A stretch of 64,000 nt of DNA. Source: an uncultured bacterium (lineage in GTDB: Bacteria; Chloroflexota; Dormibacteria; Aeolococcales; Aeolococcaceae). A program made the position numbers and the translations under genes. Positions 23,411 to 40,842 of the stretch are shown here, in pieces (the stretch's first letter is position 1; each line of letters starts with the position of its first letter). The stretch spans positions 153,512 to 217,511 of the forward strand of contig CAWJYZ010000003.1 of assembly GCA_963847225.1 (NCBI GenBank), in the 5' to 3' direction. The notes under the pieces are model-generated. The model was not told where the DNA came from. It saw only the letters and a list, made by a program, of their open reading frames with translations, and ran no database searches.

Positions 23411-23741
23411 GAGCAAGCGCCACCGCAAAGGGCGTGTGCCTCCCGCCCCCCAGCCGTCCGGCGGTGGGCGCGCCGTCGGGAGGGCGGCGTTGATCAGAAG
23501 CACACGCTGGATCGTGGTCACGAAATCGTCGGCGAGCGCCGCCTGCGCGGCCCGACCGAGCGCCGCCGACACGGGGTTCGAACCTCCGCTCGTCGACGGG
23601 CAGCCGGCACGCGCATTGCCGCCGGCCCTCGCGCATGCCAAGATGTAGGGGCTCGAACGGATGCTCCCACAGTTTGTCGTGGCCACTTGGGAAGAGGGCA
23701 GGGTGGGTGGCCTGGGTCCGCCGGATGGGACGAGGTGGAGG

Positions 23742-25836
23742 ATGACGGGGACGCTGGTAGCACCGGCACCGGTGCCGGAGGGCGACACCAGGACGGCCGG
23801 CGAGGGGGCCGCCGACGGGCACGCCACGCCCTCCCCGCGCTACGCGGACGTGGTCCCTGACACCCGCGCCCTCCTGCCCCAGGAGCGCTACACCTACCTG
23901 GTCCCAGAGGGGATGCGGGAGGAGGTCCGGGCTGGCGTGCGCGTTCGAGTGCCATTTGGCCAGCGCACGGTGCCCGGTCTCGTCATTGCGGTCTCGGCCA
24001 GGTCCGACCACACCGAGGTCCGTCCCCTGGACGCCGTCCTCGATCCCGAGCCCCTCCTCGGCGAGAACCTCCTCGGCCTCGCCGAATGGATCGCGGCCCG
24101 CTACTGCGCGCCACTCGCCGAGGTCCTCAAGGCCATGGTGCCCAAGGGTGCGCGCCCCGCTCGACCGCCGAGCGGACGCCGGCGCGGACCGCGCTCGGAG
24201 TCCGCCGCCCTCGCCGCCGCCCGGGCCACCCACCGGCGCAGCCCTCCTCCCAGGCTGACCCCGGCGCAGGCGGCGGCCGCTCGTCCGCTCCTCGAGGCCA
24301 TCGAGGCCGGCGTCCACCGGCGGGTGCTCCTCCACGGGGTGACGGGGAGCGGGAAGACGGAGGTCTACCTCGCCGCCATCGACGCCGCGCTGCGCCGGAG
24401 GAGGCAGGCGATCTGCCTCGTTCCCGAGATCGCCCTCACCCCCCAGATGATCCGCCGCTTCGCGGTCCGGTTTCCGGGCCGCCTGGCCGTCATCCACTCG
24501 GCGCTCACCGACGCCGAGCGCGCGCTCGAATGGTCCCGCGCCCGCACCGGTGGCATCGACGTCGTGGTCGGCTCGCGAAGCGCCGTCTTCGCGCCGCTCC
24601 CTCACCTCGGGGTGGTCGTCGTCGACGAGGAGGACGCCTCGGCCTACAAGCAGGACCGGATCCCGCGCTATCACGCCGTCGACGTCGCCCTCGAGCTGGG
24701 TCGGAGGGCCGGCGCTCCGGTGGTGCTGGGCAGCGCCACCCCTCGGGTGGAGACCTACTTTCAGGCCCACACCGGGGGGCTCGAGCTCACCACCATCGAG
24801 GCGCGGATCACCGGCAGGCCGCTGCCCCCCATCGAGGTGGTCGACCTGCGCGAGGAGCTTCGCGCCGGCAACCGCGGCCCGCTCTCCGAGACGCTCATCC
24901 GCGCCCTGGACCAATGCCGTGCCGAGGGCGGTCAGTCGATCCTCTACCTGAACCGGAGGGGCACCGCGACGGTCGTGCTCTGCCGCTCGTGCGGGGTGCC
25001 GCTGGAGTGCCGGAACTGCAGCGTCTCCCTTGTCTACCACGCCGGTCGGCGGCGCTGCGACTGCCATTACTGCGGCGCCTCGCGCGATCTCCCGGAGCGC
25101 TGTCCGTCCTGCGGCTCGGCGGCGATCCGTGGGCTGGGCATGGGAACGGAGCGGCTAGAGGCGGAGGTCACCGCCCTCTTCCCGGGCATGCGCCTCCTCC
25201 GCATGGACCGCGACACTGTGCAGCGGCGCGACGCGTATTTCGAGATCTACGAACGGTTTCGGGGCGGCCATGCGGACTGCCTCATCGGCACCCAGATGGT
25301 GGCCAAGGGATGGGACCTGGCGCGGGTGCGATTGGTCGGCATCGTCAACGCCGACACCTCGCTCCACTTCCCCGATTACCGGAGCGGCGAGGTGACGTTC
25401 TCCCTTCTGACCCAGGTGGCGGGGCGCGCGGGCCGGGGCGACGAGCCAGCGCGGGTGATCCTGCAGACCTATAGTCCCGAGCACTACGCGGTCCGTCATG
25501 CCGTGTCGCACGATTACCGGGGGTTCGCCCATGATGAGATCCGGGTGCGTCGCGACCACCGCTTTCCCCCCTATGCGCGCCTCGTCACCTGCACCGTCGA
25601 GTCAGGCCGATGACGGCGTCGCCGAGGCCGCCGCGCGGCGGTGCGCCGCGGATCTCTCTGCTATCCTCGGCAGCGGCGCCGGGCTCGACGTCCTCGGCCC
25701 GACCCCCGCCTTCCTGCACCGCCTTCGTGGCCAGCATCGCTGGCAGGTGACGGTGCGGGGGACGGCGATCGAGAGGGCGTTTCGACATCTGCCGAAAGGC
25801 CGCGGCTGGAGCATCGACGTCGACCCCGCCATGTAG
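23742..25836 (+). CDS. priA: primosomal protein N' (replication restart helicase PriA), frame interrupted near 25600
   Basis: The 3'BD N-terminus, Walker A HGVTGSGKTEVYL, and a Cys4 zinc-binding region (CRSCGVPLECRNCSVSLVYH...CDCHYCG...CPSCGS) are all present. The C-terminal tail (AFLHRLRGQHRWQVTVRG...DVDPAM) continues in frame +1 (25498-25836) after a stop at 25613. The start is either the ATG at 23742 or at 23661. Confidence 0.85.
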
Positions 25837-25877
25837 GGGCGGCGATCCTCAGGGGATCCGAGGAGCTGTGCAGCATC

Positions 25878-26399
25878 GTGACCCATCTTCACATCGTCAC
25901 CGTCGACGAGGGCAATCCGGTACTGCGCCGCAAGGCACCGCGCGTGGCACGCGTCGACAACTCCATTCGCCGGCTCATGGACGACATGATGGAGACCATG
26001 GTGGCGGCGCCCGGCGTCGGTCTTGCCGCCCCGCAGGTCGACGTCTCCCTCCGGGTCATCACCCTCAAGGTCGACAACCAGCTCTATCACCTCGCCAATC
26101 CCGAGATCATCAAGCAGCAGGGAGAGCAGACGGGGTACGAGGGATGCCTCTCCATCCCGGGCATGGTCGGTGAGGTCACCCGTGCCGAGAAGGTCGTCTG
26201 CAAGGCGCTCAGCAGAAGCGGCAAGCAGGTGCGTATCAAAGGCAGCGGCCTCCTGGCCCGCGCCATCCTGCACGAGATCGATCACCTCGACGGCATCCTC
26301 TTCACCGACCGGCTCACCGATCCCAGCACGCTGCGCCGGGTCGAGGAGATGACCGATGTCGAGGTGCAGGCGGTGGAGGGGGAGGTCGTGCCGGCATAA
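25878..26399 (+). CDS. def: peptide deformylase
   Basis: The GTG start at 25878 is preceded by AGGAG about 12 nt upstream. Def motifs GVGLAAPQV, EGCLSIPG and HEIDHLDG are present. Confidence 0.85.
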   Translation: MTHLHIVTVDEGNPVLRRKAPRVARVDNSIRRLMDDMMETMVAAPGVGLAAPQVDVSLRVITLKVDNQLYHLANPEIIKQQGEQTGYEGCLSIPGMVGEVTRAEKVVCKALSRSGKQVRIKGSGLLARAILHEIDHLDGILFTDRLTDPSTLRRVEEMTDVEVQAVEGEVVPA

Positions 26400-26516: not shown

Positions 26517-27425
26517 ATGAGGATCGTCTTCTGCGGGACCGCCGAGTTCGCGGTGCCGAGCCTTCGAGCCTGCAACGCTCGGCACGAGGTCGTGGCCGCC
26601 GTGACGCAGCCGGCTCGTCGCGGCAGCCGGGGCCGTCCCGCGCCCCGCCCCGTGGCCGATGCCGCGGCGCAGCTCGGCATTGACGTGCTCCAGCCGGAGC
26701 GCATCCGAAGATCGGCCGCCGTCGAGGAGATCCTGAGGCTGGCTGCGGACGTTCTCGTCGTTGCCGCCTACGGACAGATCATCCCCGCCGAGCTCCTCGA
26801 CGGCCATCGCTGGGGCGGCGTCAATGTCCACGCCTCGCTCCTGCCGCGCTGGCGTGGCGCGGCGCCCGTGGCCCGCGCCATCCTCGCCGGTGACAGCGTG
26901 ACCGGGGTCTCGATCATGAGCATGGATGCGGGGCTCGACACCGGCTCCGTCTACACCCAGCGGCGGGTTGCGATCCAGAACCGGGCGACGACGCCGGTGC
27001 TCACCCAGGAGCTGGCGGTCGCCGGGGCCGAGGAGCTGGTCTCGGTGCTCGCCGCCCTCGAACGGGGAAGCGCCACCGCCGCGCCGCAGGCGCAGGAGGG
27101 GGTGAGCTATGCGCCCCGCCTCACGCGCCAGGACGGCCGTCTCGACTGGACGGCACGCACCGCCATCGCCATCGACCGGATGGTGCGGGCGCTCCAGCCC
27201 TGGCCCGGGGTGACCGGCCAGCTCGCCGGAAGCCCGGTTCGGCTGCTGGCCGGGGAGGTCTGCGGGGAGGCGGTGGCGCCGGAGGTCACACCGGGAAGCG
27301 TCGTGCGCACCGAAGGGGAATCGGTGCTGGTGGCCACCGCCGAGGGCATCTATCGGCTCGACACCGTCCAGCCCGCGGGGCGGCGAGTGATGAGCGCGGC
27401 AGCCTTCCTGCGCGGCCGGCGCTGA
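26517..27425 (+). CDS. fmt: methionyl-tRNA formyltransferase
   Basis: MRIVFCGTAEFAVPSL, with the formyltransferase core NVHASLLPRWRGAAP. It follows def. Confidence 0.9.
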   Translation: MRIVFCGTAEFAVPSLRACNARHEVVAAVTQPARRGSRGRPAPRPVADAAAQLGIDVLQPERIRRSAAVEEILRLAADVLVVAAYGQIIPAELLDGHRWGGVNVHASLLPRWRGAAPVARAILAGDSVTGVSIMSMDAGLDTGSVYTQRRVAIQNRATTPVLTQELAVAGAEELVSVLAALERGSATAAPQAQEGVSYAPRLTRQDGRLDWTARTAIAIDRMVRALQPWPGVTGQLAGSPVRLLAGEVCGEAVAPEVTPGSVVRTEGESVLVATAEGIYRLDTVQPAGRRVMSAAAFLRGRR

Positions 27426-27434
27426 GGCAGGGCG

Positions 27435-27911
27435 ATGCCGGCAAGACGACGACCCGAGGACCCGGTCCTCGCGCGCCACCGCCAGGCGAGCCACGAATAT
27501 CACCTGCTCGAGACGTTCGAAGCCGGCGTGGAGCTGGCCGGGACGGAGGTCAAGGCGCTCCGAGCCGGGCTCGCCCAGCTTCGCGAGGGTTACATCCGCA
27601 TCGAGAACGGGGAGGCCTGGCTGGTCGGGGTTCACATCGGCCAATACGCGGCGGGTAACCGCCAGAACCACGATCCCATCCGCCGCCGCCGGCTCCTGCT
27701 CCACGGGCGCGAGATCCGCTACCTCGATCAGCGAGCCCGTCTTGGGGGCTTCACCCTGATTCCGATCCGCCTCTATCTCAAGAACAATCACATCAAGTGC
27801 GAGATCGCCGTGGCGCGCGGCAAGAAGCTGTGGGACAAGCGGGAGGCGATCGCCGCCCGCGACGCTCAGCGCGCCATCGAGAGAGCCACCAGTCGGGCAC
27901 TTCGCGGCTGA
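27435..27911 (+). CDS. smpB: SsrA-binding protein
   Basis: 158 aa with canonical SmpB features (EAGVELAGTEVKALR...GYIRIENGEAWLVGVHI) and the basic C-terminal tail. Confidence 0.9.
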   Translation: MPARRRPEDPVLARHRQASHEYHLLETFEAGVELAGTEVKALRAGLAQLREGYIRIENGEAWLVGVHIGQYAAGNRQNHDPIRRRRLLLHGREIRYLDQRARLGGFTLIPIRLYLKNNHIKCEIAVARGKKLWDKREAIAARDAQRAIERATSRALRG

Positions 27912-27926
27912 TCGAGCCACGAACCG

Positions 27927-29153
27927 TCAGCTGGCCGCCAGGTCCCTCGCAGCGTCGGGGAGCGTCCGCTCCTCAGTGGAGCGGTTGTCGCGGTTGGCCC
28001 GGGTCTCCGGCACCACCCGCGCCGCCAGCTCGTCGATGGCGGCGCGCAGCTCGCGCAATCCCGTGCCGCGGGTCGCCGAGATGCGCAGGGCGCGGCAGCC
28101 GGCGATCTCCTCGAGGCCATCGACGACCGTGTCGAGGTGGGCGGCGTCGCGGCGGTCGCACTTGTTGGCGACGAGGAGTGTCGGCTGATCGCACCCCATC
28201 TGCGCCAGGGTGGTCAGAACGGTCCTGAGCTGGCCGGCGCACTCCGGATGGGAGACGTCGACGATGAGGGCGAGGAGATGTGCGCCCCTCACCTCCTCCA
28301 GGGTGGCGTTGAAGGCTTCGACGAGCTCGGTGGGAAGCGCCTGGATGAAGCCGACGGTGTCGGTGAGGATCAATCGCCGCCCAGAGGCCAGGCTCAGCAG
28401 CCGCGAGGTCGGGTCGAGAGTGGCGAAGAGGAGGTCGTCGGCGAGGACCTCGGAGTTGGTCAGGCGGTTGAGGAGGGTTGACTTGCCGGCGTTGGTGTAG
28501 CCGACGAGGGCGCAGGACGCGAGGGGGACGTCGCTCCGCGCCTGGCGGCGCGTCCGGCGCTGGCGCTCGAGGACCTGCAGCCGCTGGCGAAGCCGGGCGA
28601 TGCGCTGCCGGATGAGCCGGCGGTCGACCTCGATCTGGGTCTCCCCGGGGCCTCCACGCAGGCCCACGCCGCCACGCTGCCGCTCCAGGTGGCTCCAGCC
28701 GCCGGCGAGACGGGGCAGGAGATGTTCCAATTGGGCCATCTCCACCTGAATCTTCCCCTCCGCGGTCACCGCCCGGCGGGCAAAGATGGCGAGGATGACC
28801 TCGGTCCGGTCCAGGACCGGGACACCCCAGCGCTCCTCGAGATTGCGCTGCTGGCGGGGACTGAGGGGATCGTTGACCAGCACCGCCGGGCTCCCCAGCT
28901 CGGCGAGGCGGGCTGCGAGGGCGTCCACCGCCCCGCCGCGGAAGAAGGTCGCGGGATGCGGCTCGCGGACGGCCACCGCGCTGTGCTCGACGACGGTCGT
29001 CCCCAGCGTGCGGGCCAGCTCCTCCAGCTCGTCAAGCTGCACGTCGACGCGCTCGCGCCCTTCGCGCCCCTGGTAGGAGCCGAAGACGGCGACGTCGCGA
29101 AGAAGCTGGCCGATCCCGGGGTCGGCCCCGGTTCGGGGCGAGGTGCGTGCCAT
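27927..29153 (-). CDS. hflX: GTPase HflX
   Basis: An HflX N-domain is followed by G-motifs GYTNAGKSTLLN, DTVGF and NKCD. The start is taken at the internal Met, because the ORF-track N-terminal extension to 29861 is antisense to the phosphatase gene and non-homologous. Confidence 0.85.
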   Translation of the reverse strand: MARTSPRTGADPGIGQLLRDVAVFGSYQGREGRERVDVQLDELEELARTLGTTVVEHSAVAVREPHPATFFRGGAVDALAARLAELGSPAVLVNDPLSPRQQRNLEERWGVPVLDRTEVILAIFARRAVTAEGKIQVEMAQLEHLLPRLAGGWSHLERQRGGVGLRGGPGETQIEVDRRLIRQRIARLRQRLQVLERQRRTRRQARSDVPLASCALVGYTNAGKSTLLNRLTNSEVLADDLLFATLDPTSRLLSLASGRRLILTDTVGFIQALPTELVEAFNATLEEVRGAHLLALIVDVSHPECAGQLRTVLTTLAQMGCDQPTLLVANKCDRRDAAHLDTVVDGLEEIAGCRALRISATRGTGLRELRAAIDELAARVVPETRANRDNRSTEERTLPDAARDLAAS

Positions 29154-29210
29154 CCACCGCCAGGGTACCGTGGGCGCGGACCCGGAAACGCCCCTGGTAC
29201 GGTTGGATGC

Positions 29211-30053
29211 ATGGCGATGCCGGAGGACCTCGTCCTGGTCCGTCACGGCGAGTCCGAGGGTAACCTCGCCGACCGGATGTCTCAGGAAGGCGACGACAGC
29301 GCCTTCACGCCCCAGTTCCGGGCCCGCCACTCCTCGAAGTACCGCCTCACCGAGCTGGGGCGCGAGCAGGCCCGCATCGCCGGCGAATGGCTCCGCGACC
29401 ACATCGGACCTCGCTTCGACCGCTACCTCACCTCCGAGTACGTGCGGGCCATGGAGACGGCCGCGCTCCTCGGTCTCCCCGGCGCCCTCTGGCAGGCCGA
29501 GTTCTACCTGCGCGAGCGCGACGCGGGAAGCCTCGACTCCCTGGCCACCGACGAGAAGTTCCGGCGCTTCCCAGAGGCCATGCAGGAGCGCGACCGCGAC
29601 GCCTTCTACTGGAGACCGCCGGGCGGCGAATCCCTCGCCGAAGTGTCGCTGCGCGTTGACCGGGTGCTCGACACCTTGCGCCGCGGCCCCACCGCGGAGC
29701 GAGCCATCATCGTCTGCCACGGTGAGGTGATGCGCGCCTTCCGGGTGCGCATCGAGCGCCTCCCCCAGCATCGCTACATCGAGCTGCACGCGCCGCTGGA
29801 CAGCCGCGACCAGTTCCACAACTGCCAGATCCTCCACTACACGCGTCGCGATCCCGCGCACCCCGAGCGGATCTCCGACTACCTCGCTTGGATGCGTTCG
29901 GTCTGTCCTTGGGATCCGAGCCTCTCCCGGAATGTCTGGACGCCGGTGACGCGGCCCCGCTACACCAACAGCGAGCTGCTTGACCTCGCCGAGCGGACGC
30001 CCCGGCTTCTCGCCGGCCCCCCGTTGGCGGAGGTGGAGTCGGCGATCCCCTGA
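29211..30053 (+). CDS. histidine phosphatase family (phosphoglycerate mutase-like) protein
   Basis: It starts MAMPEDLVLVRHGESEGN, carrying the RHG catalytic motif. Length is 281 aa. Confidence 0.7.
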   Translation: MAMPEDLVLVRHGESEGNLADRMSQEGDDSAFTPQFRARHSSKYRLTELGREQARIAGEWLRDHIGPRFDRYLTSEYVRAMETAALLGLPGALWQAEFYLRERDAGSLDSLATDEKFRRFPEAMQERDRDAFYWRPPGGESLAEVSLRVDRVLDTLRRGPTAERAIIVCHGEVMRAFRVRIERLPQHRYIELHAPLDSRDQFHNCQILHYTRRDPAHPERISDYLAWMRSVCPWDPSLSRNVWTPVTRPRYTNSELLDLAERTPRLLAGPPLAEVESAIP

Positions 30054-30529: not shown

Positions 30530-32059
30530 ATGGGGCAGGCGAGCTTCGGGGGGCGACGGCTTCGGACCGGTGGCAAGGGTGCGGGGGAGAGGACGGCACG
30601 CGGCGGGAGCTGGCCCCGGCTTCTGGCCCCCCAGTGGGTCGTCCTCCTCCTCGTCTGTCTCGGCCAGTTCCTGGTCATCCTTGACCTCTCGGTGGTGAAC
30701 GTGGCCCTGCCCTCGATTCGCAGAGACCTCGGTTTCACCGCCGACGGCCTGCAGTGGGTGGTCAACGCCTACGCGCTCACCTTCGCCGGCTTCCTCCTCC
30801 TCGCCGGCCGGGGAGCGGACCGCTTCGGGCGGCGCCGCCTCCTCCTCGCGGGGCTCGCCCTCTTCTCCCTGGCGAGCCTCCTCGACGGCCTGGCGTCGAC
30901 CCAGTGGGAGCTGGTGGCCGCGCGGGCCCTGCAGGGCTTTGGTGGGGCCATCCTCACCCCGGCCACGCTCACCATCCTGATCGCCACCTACCCCGAGGGG
31001 CGGGCGCGAGCTCGGGCTCTCGGGATCTGGAGTGGGGTGGCCGCGGCGGGCGGCGCCGCCGGGGCGCTCCTCGGCGGAGTCATCACCCAGTACCTGAGCT
31101 GGCGCTGGATCTTCTTCATCAACCTGCCGATCGGCATCGTGGTGCTGGTGCTCGCCAGCCTGGTGATCGCCGAGACCTTCGGCGACCTGCGCGGCCGCCA
31201 CCTGGACCTGGGCGGGGCGATCAGCGTCACCGGGGGCCTCTCCGCGCTGGCCTGGGGTATCGCCCGCAGTCAGGCGGCCGGATGGGAGGCCCCCGACGTC
31301 CTGGGCGCCTTCGCCGCCGGGCTCGCCCTTCTCGCCCTCTTCGTCTTCATCGAGGCGCGCCTGGCCCGGGTGCCGCTCGTCCCTCTGCGGCTGTTCCGGT
31401 CCCGTTCGGTCACCGGGGCGAACCTCGTGTCCTTTGGGCTCGGCGCGGCGCTCTTCGCCATCTGGTACTTCCTCTCCCTGTACCTGCAGCAGGTGCGCGG
31501 CTTGACGCCGCTGGCGGCAGGGCTGACGTTCCTGCCCCAGACGCTGGCCATCGCCGTCGGCTCCCAGGTCAGCTCCCGGCTCATCCCGAGGCTGGGGGCG
31601 CGGCCCTTCCTGGTGGGCGGTCCGCTGCTCGGCGTGGCCGGCCTGCTCTGGCTGGCCCAACTCTCCGTGTCCCCGGCGATCTGGTCGGCGGTGCTGATCC
31701 CGGGGGCTCTCCTCACCTTCGGTGCTGGGCTCACCTTCCCGGCCGTCACCATCGCCGCCACGTCGGGCGTGCCTCGCGGAGAGGCTGGCCTGGCCAGCGG
31801 CGTCGTCAACACCAGCCGGCAGGTGGGCGGTTCGCTGGGATTGGCGGTGCTGGCCACTCTCGCCGCCGACCACAGCGCCGCCCTCGCCGCGGCCGGCAGC
31901 GCCGCCCCGGTCGCCCTCACCGGGGGCTACACCCTGGGGCTCGTCGTCGCGGCGGGCGTCGCTCTGGCCACCGCGCTGGCCGGGCTCGTGGTGCCGGGGA
32001 TCGGTCGGCCCGCCCGGCAGGAGAGGCCGATCGGTGAGGTGCAGGAGGCGGCCGCCTGA
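30530..32059 (+). CDS. MFS transporter, DHA2 (EmrB/QacA) 14-TM family
   Basis: 509 aa with about 14 predicted hydrophobic segments and the MFS signature GRGADRFGRRR. It is likely regulated by the adjacent ArsR. Confidence 0.85.
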   Translation: MGQASFGGRRLRTGGKGAGERTARGGSWPRLLAPQWVVLLLVCLGQFLVILDLSVVNVALPSIRRDLGFTADGLQWVVNAYALTFAGFLLLAGRGADRFGRRRLLLAGLALFSLASLLDGLASTQWELVAARALQGFGGAILTPATLTILIATYPEGRARARALGIWSGVAAAGGAAGALLGGVITQYLSWRWIFFINLPIGIVVLVLASLVIAETFGDLRGRHLDLGGAISVTGGLSALAWGIARSQAAGWEAPDVLGAFAAGLALLALFVFIEARLARVPLVPLRLFRSRSVTGANLVSFGLGAALFAIWYFLSLYLQQVRGLTPLAAGLTFLPQTLAIAVGSQVSSRLIPRLGARPFLVGGPLLGVAGLLWLAQLSVSPAIWSAVLIPGALLTFGAGLTFPAVTIAATSGVPRGEAGLASGVVNTSRQVGGSLGLAVLATLAADHSAALAAAGSAAPVALTGGYTLGLVVAAGVALATALAGLVVPGIGRPARQERPIGEVQEAAA

Positions 32060-32369
32060 CGCTCAGGGAGCCAGGTGGGCGGGAACCGGAGCGACGGGAG
32101 GCGGGTGGTCAGAGGCCGCGGCCTTCAGACGTCGACCGGCGCGAAGCGGGCGGCGAAGCGGCGCAGTGCCGCGGGCTCTTCCACGCTCGCGTCGCCGCCG
32201 AGGCGGTCACGCCCTGCCCCGAGATGTACCACCCGCTCGTGCACGTCCGGAAGCGGTCGCCGGCGCGCTACGAGCGCTGGCTCGCCGACGCCGTCGTGAG
32301 CGGGCTCCTGCCGCCGAGCTAGTCAGCCGAGCCGGCCGGCTCACGCCGCCCAGTCGAATCTGTGCGCCG

Positions 32370-32746
32370 TGGTGGAGCCGAGGGGAATCGAACCCCTGTC
32401 CGAAACCGCGTTCCGCGTGACCTCTACGAGCGTAGTCCCGGTTTTGCTCTCACTCTCGGCGCGCCCTGGGACCAGGCTCGCCGGGAGCCAGCCGCGGTGA
32501 GCGTCCCGGCCGGCGCCGCGGCGCCACCGGCCGGCGAGACCGCTGGTATTTACGTCGGCTCAGGCCCCCGCGGTCGAGGGACCCGACGACGTCAGGCCGT
32601 GGCCTGAGCTTTTTCTCGTTCTACCGCTTACGCGGCGAGGGCGAGAGCAGGTGCGTCGTTCGCACGTATTGTTTTCCCGGTTTTACGAGCCCGGGGCTCG
32701 GCCCGCCATCACACGACCCACGATCCCGTCGAATCCATACGGCCCC
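32370..32746 (-). ncRNA. ssrA: transfer-messenger RNA (tmRNA, ssrA); encoded tag (A)NDAPALALAA
   Basis: The minus-strand 5' end GGGGCCGUAUGGAUUCGACGGG matches the tmRNA 5' consensus. The 3' end ...GGACAGGGGUUCGAUUCCCCUCGGCUCCACCA has a T-arm plus an acceptor stem pairing with GGGGCCG, and CCA is encoded. The internal ORF GCG AAC GAC GCA CCU GCU CUC GCC CUC GCC GCG UAA translates to a tag ending in ALAA. smpB lies 4.5 kb upstream. Confidence 0.85.
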
Positions 32747-32808
32747 GTGAGCACGGCAGCCCGATGGCTGCTGCCGACAGGGAGATGATAGCCGTCCGCC
32801 GGGGTCGG

Positions 32809-33432
32809 TCAAACTGCCGGCTGGCCAGCAGCCCGCCGCGCCGCCTCCTCCAGGCGCTGGCGATATGCCTCCCACCAGCCGGCGTCCACGGGTGGGAGGT
32901 TTTCGCTGCCGGCCTTCCAGCCGACGGCGCCATCGATCATCTCTCGGACGATGTCGGCCTGACCGGCGTGCCGGTTCGTCTCAGCGATCACGTGCACCAG
33001 GATCCGGTTCAGGGTCACCCCCTTGCCGGGCTTCCACCAGGTCACGTCGCCGATGGCCTCGAGGGGAAGCGCCTCGATGGTGGCGTCGGAGTGCGCCCAG
33101 ACCCGCCGGTAGAGATCGAGGATCTCCTCCCGGAACTCGTCGGCGGTCGCCCACATGTCGGCGTTGGGCTCTGCCCCGGCCGCGTACCAGGGGAACCGCT
33201 CCATGTAGGGGACGCCGTCGAATGGCCGGCCGAAGGTCTCGCCGAGGTAGCCGGCCTCGACGCTCGCCACGTGCTTCACGAGGCCGAGCAGGTTGGTGCC
33301 CGTGGGCACCATGGGCCGGCGCACGTCGTACTCGGAGAGGCCGTCGAGCTTCCACAGGAGGGTCTCGCGCGCCTCCCGCAGGTAGCGGTGCAGATCCTCC
33401 TTGGCGCCCGTCGCCGTCATGGAACGCACCAT
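32809..33432 (-). CDS. DinB/DUF664-family protein (four-helix-bundle metalloenzyme-like)
   Basis: 207 aa with the conserved DUF664 pattern (LHRYLREARETLLWKLDGLSEYDVRRPMVPTGTNLLGLVKHVASVEAGY...ILVHVIAETNRHAGQADIVREMIDG). Confidence 0.65.
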   Translation of the reverse strand: MVRSMTATGAKEDLHRYLREARETLLWKLDGLSEYDVRRPMVPTGTNLLGLVKHVASVEAGYLGETFGRPFDGVPYMERFPWYAAGAEPNADMWATADEFREEILDLYRRVWAHSDATIEALPLEAIGDVTWWKPGKGVTLNRILVHVIAETNRHAGQADIVREMIDGAVGWKAGSENLPPVDAGWWEAYRQRLEEAARRAAGQPAV

Positions 33433-33459: not shown

Positions 33460-34407
33460 TCAGCTCGCACCGGCGCTCCCGAGCGCGGCGAGACGGGCCT
33501 CGGTGATGCGGATCGCCTCCGGGTTGGTGTCGACGCTGAGGTGGCGCCGGCCCAGCGCCTTGGCCGCCACCGCCGCCGTTCCCGAACCGCCGAAGAAGTC
33601 GGCGACGAGATCGCCGGGGCGGCTGGAGGCGAGGACGATGCGCTGCAGAAGGCGGAGCGGCTTCTGCGTCGGGTAGCCGGTGCGCTCCCGGCCGCTGGTG
33701 GGCACGATGGTCATCCACCAGACGTCGGTGGGAAGCTTCCCCCGCGCCGCCTTCTCGGGGGTCACCAACCCGGGGGCGAGATAGGGGAGGCGGTCGACCG
33801 CCTCGCGATTGAAGATCCATCTCTCCCCTCTCGCGTACCAGAGGATGTTGTCGTGCTTGCGGGGCCAGCGGTCCCGCCCCCGGCCGCCGTAGTCGTAGGC
33901 CCAGATGATCTCGTTGAGGAAGCGCTCGGAGCCGAAGACCTCGTCGAGAAGGAGGCGGACGTGGTGCACGGCATGATGGTCGAGGTGCACATAGATCGAG
34001 CCATGCTCGGCCAGAACGCGGCGCATGGCGACGAACCGCGGGGCCAGGAAGGCGAGGTAGGCGTCGAGGTCCAGGTCGTCGCGGTACTCGTGAGTGGAGA
34101 CGGTCTCCCAGCGGTAGGTCCGCCCGCCGAAGCCCACCCGGGTGCGCTCCCCGGCACCGGTGCGGATGGAGGCGAGCCGCTGCCGCTGCCTCGTGCCGAA
34201 GGGCGGGTCGACGTAGATGAGGTCGACGCAGCCATCCGACAGCGCCTCCAGCACCTCGAGGTTGTCGGCGAGGAAGACGCCCTCGGGGGCCTGTCCCTCT
34301 TGCGGGGCTCCTCCACAGGGTGCGGGCTCCCCCACAACAACCCTGGGATCGTCACCGATCGACACAACCTCGGGATCATCGCCAATCGGCGTTGGTTGAC
34401 GGTTCAA
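33460..34407 (-). CDS. site-specific DNA methyltransferase (beta-class N6-adenine/N4-cytosine, DPPF motif), no adjacent restriction enzyme
   Basis: Motif IV VDLIYVDPPF is near the N-terminus, and motif I DFFGGSGTAAVAAKALGRRHLSVD is near the C-terminus, which is the beta-class order. The N-terminal roughly 40 aa contain a tandem peptide repeat (IGDDPEVVSIGDDPRVVVG). Confidence 0.8.
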   Translation of the reverse strand: MNRQPTPIGDDPEVVSIGDDPRVVVGEPAPCGGAPQEGQAPEGVFLADNLEVLEALSDGCVDLIYVDPPFGTRQRQRLASIRTGAGERTRVGFGGRTYRWETVSTHEYRDDLDLDAYLAFLAPRFVAMRRVLAEHGSIYVHLDHHAVHHVRLLLDEVFGSERFLNEIIWAYDYGGRGRDRWPRKHDNILWYARGERWIFNREAVDRLPYLAPGLVTPEKAARGKLPTDVWWMTIVPTSGRERTGYPTQKPLRLLQRIVLASSRPGDLVADFFGGSGTAAVAAKALGRRHLSVDTNPEAIRITEARLAALGSAGAS

Positions 34408-34457
34408 CTACATGGGTATACGCTTGGGGTCCAGATCCGCCCGCCCCGGAGAGCCCC

Positions 34458-35426
34458 ATGCCTGCTGTCACGACCCCCGACATCCTCACCCTGCCACGCG
34501 TCCCTGAACCGGACCACTCCACGCAGCGCCCCCGCCCCGTCCTCTCCGTCACCTCCGCCCCCAGCGGGCTGGAGGGGGAGGGCTTCCCGGTGCGGCGGGC
34601 CTTCGCCGGCGTTGACCTCACCGCCCTCGATCCCTTCGTGCACATGGACCAGATGGGAGAGGTCCAGTACGCGCCGGGCGAGCCGAAGGGCACGCCCTGG
34701 CACCCGCACCGTGGCTTCGAGACGGTGACGTACATGATCGACGGCACCTTCCGACACCGGGACTCGACGGGTGGGGGAGGGCTGATCACCAACGGCGCCA
34801 CCCAGTGGATGACGGCGGGAGCGGGCATCCTTCATATCGAGCAGCCCCCGGAGGAGCTGGTGGCGAGCGGAGGGCTCTTCCACGGCATCCAGCTGTGGGT
34901 CAACCTGCCCGCCGCCAAGAAGTGGGTGCCGGCGCGCTACCAGGACATTGGCGCCCAGCGGGTGACCCTCCTCGCCTCCCGCGATGGCGCGACGCTGGTC
35001 CGGGTCATCGCCGGCGAGGTCGCCGGATACGACGGCCCGGGCATCACCCACACCCCGATCGCCCTGGTGCACGCCACCCTGGCCCCGGGAGCCGTGCTCG
35101 AGCTGCCCTGGAACCCCGGCTTCAACGCCCTCGCCTACGTCCTCGCCGGAGCGGGCACGGTGGGGGCTGACGGGGTGGCCCCGGCCCGGATGGGACAGCT
35201 CGCGGTGTTCGGGTCCGGCGATTTCATCACGGTGGCCGCGGCGGAGCGCCAGGAGAGCCGTTCCCCGGAGCTCGACGTCCTGCTCCTCGGCGGCGAGCCG
35301 ATCAAGGAGCCGGTGGCGCACTATGGCCCCTTCGTCATGAACAGCCGCGACGAGCTCCTCCAAGCCTTCGAGGACTATCGTGCCGGGCGCTTGGGGACCA
35401 TACCGGCCGACGCCATCACGGTCTGA
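34458..35426 (+). CDS. pirin-family (bicupin) protein
   Basis: The ATG at 34458 has a GGAGAG ribosome-binding site. The cupin metal-binding motif HPHRGFETVTYMIDG is present. Length is 322 aa. Confidence 0.85.
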   Translation: MPAVTTPDILTLPRVPEPDHSTQRPRPVLSVTSAPSGLEGEGFPVRRAFAGVDLTALDPFVHMDQMGEVQYAPGEPKGTPWHPHRGFETVTYMIDGTFRHRDSTGGGGLITNGATQWMTAGAGILHIEQPPEELVASGGLFHGIQLWVNLPAAKKWVPARYQDIGAQRVTLLASRDGATLVRVIAGEVAGYDGPGITHTPIALVHATLAPGAVLELPWNPGFNALAYVLAGAGTVGADGVAPARMGQLAVFGSGDFITVAAAERQESRSPELDVLLLGGEPIKEPVAHYGPFVMNSRDELLQAFEDYRAGRLGTIPADAITV

Positions 35427-38447: not shown

Positions 38448-40364
<1,917 letters not shown>

Positions 40365-40491
40365 ACTGCTGGGTCCCTCCAGAACTCGATTGAATGGGTG
40401 CTCGCGGCGCTCGCGCCGCCAAGCACGGTCCGGATATACCGCGGACGCCCTCCATGCTAAACCGCGCGGCATGGGGGTACCGTGGGAGGCC

Positions 40492-40842
40492 ATGGCGGAG
40501 GTCCCCGCGGCCGGTGCCCTGGAGATCCGGCTCGCCGAGCTGCGCAAGCGCGCCGACGAGGACTTCCTGCGGCCGTCCGCGGCCCGGCCTCCGGGCCGTC
40601 ACCAGATCGACATCACCGAGCTGGGCCTGCGGGTGGCCATGACCAGAGCCCGCTATCCCAACCGGGCGGATGGGGTGGAGATGTACGCCGTGACCCTGAG
40701 CCGCCTGGCTCTCGACCATGCCCCCGCGGAGCCCGAGGTGCGCGCCGTCCTGGAGGCCGCCTTCGGGGCGGGGGCGGCGGAGGCGGTGGAGCGGAGCGGC
40801 GGAGGACCGCTGGTGCGCATGTTCCGCTTGCCCGCCGGCTGA
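40492..40842 (+). CDS. hypothetical protein
   Basis: 116-aa ORF from the ATG at 40492. It shows GC3 bias. No family assignment could be made. Confidence 0.45.

Follow-up and report, generated by a model that had tools for sequence, protein, structure and literature searches.

The tmRNA is an RNA found in almost all bacteria, where it rescues stalled ribosomes and marks the unfinished protein for destruction. In Escherichia coli SsrA, as in the Rfam family RF00023, the RNA measures about 360-380 nt and combines a tRNA-Ala-like domain and helix 2 with the pseudoknots PK1 and PK2-PK4 and with a reading frame that opens at an Ala resume codon and closes at a UAA in helix 5. In E. coli the resume codon is GCA and the encoded tag is ANDENYALAA, with 10 residues. 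According to a previous review, more than 99% of bacterial genomes contain a tmRNA (PMC8012679). The review also covers the two-piece tmRNAs of Alphaproteobacteria, some Betaproteobacteria and some Cyanobacteria, which are circularly permuted and share with the RNA described below its function and its tRNA-like and mRNA-like modules (PMC8012679). As for Dormibacterota, no specific description of the tmRNA was found in the literature searched, one paper mentioning it only as a Prokka annotation count.

Here, a tmRNA gene of this already known, ordinary kind was located on the minus strand of a 64-kb window, that is, the whole stretch of DNA that was analysed (positions 1-64000). The locus is read, with a probability of about 0.97, as a normal, complete chromosomal ssrA gene for a standard one-piece tmRNA working with the SmpB encoded 4.5 kb away. 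Its host is an uncultured bacterium of the high-GC soil type with a relationship to Candidatus Dormibacterota. In comparison with E. coli SsrA and RF00023, all the elements named above are kept, the tag likewise begins with AND and ends with ALAA, and the size is the same. On the other hand, the resume codon is GCG instead of GCA, the tag has 11 residues with a Pro/Ala/Leu-rich DAPAL middle where that of E. coli has ENY, and the RNA has a high GC content (68.7%) and, relative to the RF00023 consensus, carries an extra 16-nt hairpin inserted between helix 5 and PK2. These departures from a textbook tmRNA are all minor. Unlike the two-piece tmRNAs, the gene is unpermuted, with the 5' acceptor strand first and the 3' strand with CCA last, and ARAGORN reports it in the standard form and not as 'tmRNA*'. 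No sequence feature speaking against a standard tmRNA was found.

Detection of the gene and fold of its RNA

When the whole 64-kb window was searched with ARAGORN, a single gene was reported, a tmRNA at 32370-32746 on the minus strand with the tag ANDAPALALAA* and with its coding part at 84-119 of the gene. Additionally, when all 64 kb were compared with Rfam 15 by cmscan at gathering thresholds, RF00023 was matched at 32746-32370 on the same strand with 161.6 bits (gathering score 47, E 6.9e-64), the match being collinear with the model, covering its positions 1-374 of 374, and untruncated. Within the window (1-64000), no RNA family other than tmRNA was found at the Rfam gathering thresholds, and no tRNA gene was reported by ARAGORN. 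Since ARAGORN and Rfam are independent and arrived at the same coordinates, the tmRNA observation is confirmed, far beyond chance. An earlier note, made from the letters of the window, had proposed an unannotated ssrA gene with these coordinates, this strand and this tag, and had named ARAGORN and Infernal with RF00023 as ways to check it; both returned the gene, the second at full length, and the minus-strand ends that it had given, 5' GGGGCCGUAUGGAUUCGACGGG and GGUUCGAUUCCCCUCGGCUCCACCA 3', agree exactly with the letters read from 32746 to 32370. A standard annotation pipeline with ARAGORN or Infernal would also report this ssrA.

The secondary structure of the 377-nt RNA was written from the Rfam alignment and by inspection, with the helices numbered according to the usual tmRNA nomenclature, and comprises 115 pairs; in the window sequence all of them are standard but one, C263/A291 of helix 10. 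When the 5' and 3' ends were folded, as had also been suggested, the acceptor stem and the T arm formed with every pair standard, in agreement with the previous reading of an acceptor with one G-U pair, a T-loop and an encoded CCA. The single G-U is the third pair of the acceptor stem, G3:U70, which is an identity element for alanyl-tRNA synthetase. The T stem pairs AGGGG with CCCCU (350-354/362-366) around the loop UUCGAUU, and helix 2 is formed by RNA 19-28/337-346, 31-39/326-334 and 42-46/316-320. The placement of PK1 just 5' of the resume codon, of helix 5 around the stop and of PK2-PK4 downstream is the layout of a tmRNA. The coordinates of these elements and of the surrounding genes are collected in Table 1.

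The tag frame has no start codon and begins at an Ala codon, the GCG resume codon at RNA 84, which is preceded by an A-rich single-stranded stretch (...AAAACAAUACGU). Translation showed that the frame had been read exactly (GCG AAC GAC GCA CCU GCU CUC GCC CUC GCC GCG UAA), with the UAA stop at RNA 117-119, and the tag with the canonical ALAA end is the same one that ARAGORN gives.

Table 1. Positions in the 64-kb window of the ssrA gene, the elements of its RNA and the neighbouring genes
Feature	Position in window	Strand	Description and evidence
priA	23661-25613		run closed by smpB
def	25641-26399		run closed by smpB
fmt	26517-27425		run closed by smpB
smpB	27435-27911	+	SmpB, 158 aa; Pfam PF01668, E 6e-53, 179 bits against a cut-off of 27
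Histidine-phosphatase-family gene	28689-30053	+	between smpB and ssrA
MFS transporter gene	30530-32059	+	between smpB and ssrA
ssrA	32370-32746	-	one-piece tmRNA, 377 nt, 68.7% GC, encoded CCA; ARAGORN, RF00023, covariation-supported fold
T arm, acceptor 3' strand and ACCA tail	32370-32397	-	RNA 350-366, 367-373 and 374-377; fold, Rfam
PK4	32434-32488	-	RNA 259-313; helix 10 259-272/282-295, helix 11 274-279/308-313; fold
PK3	32491-32534	-	RNA 213-256; helix 8 213-222/232-241, helix 9 225-231/250-256; fold
PK2	32538-32591	-	RNA 156-209; helix 6 156-169/179-194, helix 7 172-177/204-209; fold
Extra 16-nt hairpin	32592-32607	-	RNA 140-155 (140-145/150-155), UCAGGC-CACG-GCCUGA; insert relative to the Rfam consensus in the cmscan alignment
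Helix 5	32620-32638	-	RNA 109-127 (109-115/120-127), UAA within GUAA loop; Rfam, fold
Tag frame	32628-32663	-	RNA 84-119; GCG resume codon, 11 codons ANDAPALALAA, UAA stop; ARAGORN, translation
PK1	32676-32700	-	RNA 47-71; CGAGC/GCUCG (47-51/57-61), CCCGG/CCGGG (52-56/67-71); 10/10 standard pairs
Acceptor stem 5' strand	32740-32746	-	RNA 1-7 GGGGCCG; pairs with RNA 367-373 CGGCUCC, 7/7 standard
Promoter-like site	32785-32812	-	TTGACC, 16 nt, TATCAT; ends 38 nt before the mature 5' end
Mycothiol-S-transferase/DinB-family gene	32809-33432	-	5' side of ssrA
DNA methyltransferase gene	33460-34407	-	Pfam N6_N4_Mtase, E 5e-44; about 700 bases 5' of ssrA
Pirin gene	34320-35426	+	5' side of ssrA
dnaK	38448-40547	-	5' side of ssrA, further out

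Covariation and variable features among related tmRNAs

Related loci were fetched with the SmpB protein of the window, one genome being taken per species. The closest SmpB matches were 74-78% identical and belonged to MAGs labelled 'bacterium', 'Candidatus Binatia', 'uncultured Actinomycetes' and 'Candidatus Dormibacteraeota'; these were followed by a long series of Candidatus Dormibacterota/Dormibacteraeota MAGs at 63-70% and then by Chloroflexota at about 55%. Among the 23 closest loci, 13 had a tmRNA called by ARAGORN at 1.5-9 kb beyond smpB. The tmRNA of the window was aligned with 13 tmRNAs from related MAGs of the Candidatus Dormibacterota type (loci L001, L002, L004-L007, L009-L011, L016-L018 and L023), giving an alignment of 14 tmRNAs with a mean column identity of 86%, in which the window tmRNA was 93.9% identical to L001, 89.7% identical to L002 and 74-82% identical to the rest.

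In these 14 tmRNAs, 95.9% of the cells were paired, against 36-43% when the partners were slid by 1-3 columns, a measure that is somewhat inflated by the structure having been partly derived from the window sequence. Such a bias does not explain the number of pairs changing on both sides, which was 35, compared with 5-9 after sliding; the slid controls likewise gave covariation scores of 0.037-0.064 where 0.260 was observed, and none of 500 shuffles reached any observed measure. Compensatory changes were distributed over the acceptor stem, helix 2, helix 5, the extra hairpin, helices 6-10 and the T stem. The acceptor and T stems were 100% paired in the 14 sequences, with a compensatory change from G-C to C-G at acceptor pair 5, two T-stem pairs changed on both sides, and G3:U70 invariant in 14/14. 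In PK2, seven pairs of helix 6 and two of helix 7 changed on both sides, and in PK3, which was 97-100% paired, four pairs of helix 8 and two of helix 9 did so. Seven such pairs were counted in helix 10, helix 11 being invariant, and helix 5, in which two pairs had changed on both strands, was less well paired across the relatives (85.7%). PK1 and helix 11 show no variation in the 14 sequences, so that they are conserved but carry no covariation support. The tRNA-like domain proposed earlier, together with the rest of the fold, is a structure backed as a whole by covariation in 13 related tmRNAs.

The tag frame is kept by the relatives, as are the ends ...LALAA or ...VALAA, with the general pattern AN(D/N)...ALAA. 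According to ARAGORN, the tag of L002 is identical to that of the window and the tag of L001, ANDAPAFALAA, differs in one residue, the other tags being ANDAPLALAA, ANDAPVALAA, ANNAPLALAA, ANNAPVALAA, ANNNAQLALAA, ANTAQPLALAA, ANNAQPLALAA, ADNAQPLALAA, AKNAQPLALAA and ANSTPELAYAA. The CCA, on the other hand, is encoded in the window and not in its closest relatives L001 and L002, nor in L005, L006 and L009; in these five loci, the letters after the discriminator A are GGG, AGT, GTT, GAT or AAT (L001:6140-6150, L002:16681-16690, L005:14844-14851, L006:3721-3728, L009:11300-11307). Since the window and eight other members encode CCA and these five do not, CCA encoding is variable within the group.

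It was also observed that ARAGORN calls, in two of the relatives, an additional 'permuted' tmRNA* (L007:16288-16938 and L009:11208-11800, both on the plus strand) with the implausible tags EGPKVPKAVAWP and ARAAPVPGARRTAA. Both calls share sequence with the 3' part of the standard tmRNA and reach about 500 nt downstream. They probably are false positives for which the real T arm served as the seed, or may represent a 3' fragment duplicated by an integration event.

The extra hairpin was 100% paired in the 14 tmRNAs, with two compensatory pairs, and in single-sequence MFE folds it was obtained for the window, L006, L010 and L023. In the same kind of fold, no such hairpin was predicted for L027, L045 and L051, which are Chloroflexota tmRNAs with PK2 following helix 5 without interruption. 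A pseudoknot between GCUCAGGCC (RNA 138-146) and GGCCUGAGC (RNA 181-189) could also be drawn in the window sequence; it is not kept by the relatives and was rejected because these show compensatory changes for the local hairpin instead. The hairpin is common to the window and the Candidatus Dormibacterota-type MAG tmRNAs, and both it and the tag may serve as modest lineage markers, grouping the organism with these MAGs. It is conceivable, if rather unlikely, that the hairpin is a lineage-specific functional addition and that the Pro/Ala-rich core of the tag similarly reflects a lineage-specific adaptor or protease preference.

Expression signals and proposed working of the system

The promoter-like site upstream of ssrA is the sole sigma-70-like match in 32100-33100, with 0.0 expected in shuffles. 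In addition, the -10 pattern TAnnAT is invariant in 7/7 upstream regions of the tmRNA genes of the group, which are otherwise 53% identical, and this conservation supports a real promoter with a short 5' leader, presumably removed by RNase P. At the other end of the gene, a consensus scan of the minus strand gave no intrinsic terminator after CCA, and the fold of the 93-nt 3' flank was no better than that of shuffles (z = -0.12). High-GC bacteria often lack U-tract terminators. The scan did give two terminator-like matches within the tmRNA gene, but these are on the plus strand and are the reverse complements of tmRNA hairpins.

The mechanism of trans-translation has been reviewed (PMC8012679), and the working of the present system can be proposed from what that review describes for the tmRNA family. 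The ssrA gene would be transcribed from the TTGACC/TATCAT promoter, the leader would be trimmed to G1, and the 3' end would already carry CCA. The paired ends would then form the tRNA-Ala-like domain, with G3:U70 and the T arm, to which alanyl-tRNA synthetase would add alanine, and SmpB would stand in for the missing anticodon arm. By analogy with the described family members, EF-Tu would bring the complex to a ribosome that has stalled at the broken end of an mRNA with its A site empty, and the nascent chain would move onto the alanine. The bases just 5' of the frame would be read by SmpB, which would place the resume codon, so that the ribosome would switch to GCG, translate ANDAPALALAA and terminate at the UAA in the loop of helix 5. 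The released protein would be expected to have (A)ANDAPALALAA as its C terminus, tagged truncated proteins yielding peptides that end in AANDAPALALAA, and the ...ALAA end would act as a degradation signal for proteases of the ClpXP, ClpAP and Lon types. With its smpB, the gene represents the standard trans-translation ribosome-rescue system in an uncultured high-GC bacterium, and no new biology is implied.

smpB and the genomic neighbourhood

The SmpB translation shows a basic C-terminal tail, and its gene is separated from the 3' end of ssrA by 4,458 bases, the two genes being convergent. Exactly this SmpB protein is recorded in a 2.5-kb Logan contig of run ERR11594399, and a contig of more than 1 Mb is also listed for it in the index. 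The earlier note had placed smpB 4.5 kb upstream of ssrA on the other strand; the distance and the strand hold, but since smpB lies on the downstream side of a minus-strand ssrA, 'upstream' is true in window coordinates only. A location of smpB on the 5' side was discarded, no SmpB being found in the ORFs at 36.6-38.2 kb. The convergent arrangement is also seen in L001 and L002, at distances of about 4.0 kb and about 6.2 kb. Among the Dormibacterota-type relatives, ssrA does not always have the same orientation with respect to smpB, and the loose linkage to smpB is, like the extra hairpin, a trait that they have in common with the window.

The surroundings are those of a chromosomal housekeeping neighbourhood (priA, def, fmt, gmk, dnaK). 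Islands and prophages often integrate at the 3' end of ssrA, and the DNA methyltransferase gene close to ssrA would be in keeping with a gene that is borne by a mobile element or duplicated, or whose 3' end is an island or prophage attachment site and has been partly reconstituted. However, no second copy of the 25-nt 3' end was detected in the 64-kb window with up to three mismatches, and no integrase is present among the flanking genes, the 3' side being occupied by the MFS transporter, the histidine phosphatase and the smpB-fmt-def-priA run. Moreover, the methyltransferase lies 5' of ssrA, a side at which islands targeting this gene do not insert, the GC content is flat across the region, at about 0.70-0.73, and the convergent layout is shared with L001 and L002. 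An origin of this kind is therefore very improbable, and was rejected as largely refuted. Even less credit can be given to the idea of a decayed, non-functional relic that still scores well with covariance models, in favour of which the single non-standard pair of helix 10 might be cited, since the defining elements (G3:U70, T loop, CCA, resume codon, ALAA tag in frame, helix 5 stop and four pseudoknots) are intact, the differences from the relatives are compensatory, which is what purifying selection on the structure would be expected to leave, smpB is intact nearby and the -10 element of the promoter is conserved.

Regarding the genes around this normal chromosomal ssrA, a scan of five other ORFs at 32.8-38.2 kb gave no match to a restriction-endonuclease domain, and three of the five were without any Pfam match, so the DNA methyltransferase may be an orphan methylase. 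The dnaK ORF, taken from its first in-frame start (TTG), measures 699 aa; as its HSP70 domain begins only at residue 66, the true start is probably about 60 codons inside the mechanical ORF. Three further mechanical ORFs overlie the tmRNA gene, at 31722-32420 (plus strand, 232 aa), 32362-32607 (plus strand, 81 aa) and 32621-32875 (minus strand, 84 aa). The 232-aa ORF has no Pfam match, and all three are likely artefacts of the high GC content. For annotation, it follows that the locus should be labelled ssrA (tmRNA), leaving these three ORFs uncalled as genes.
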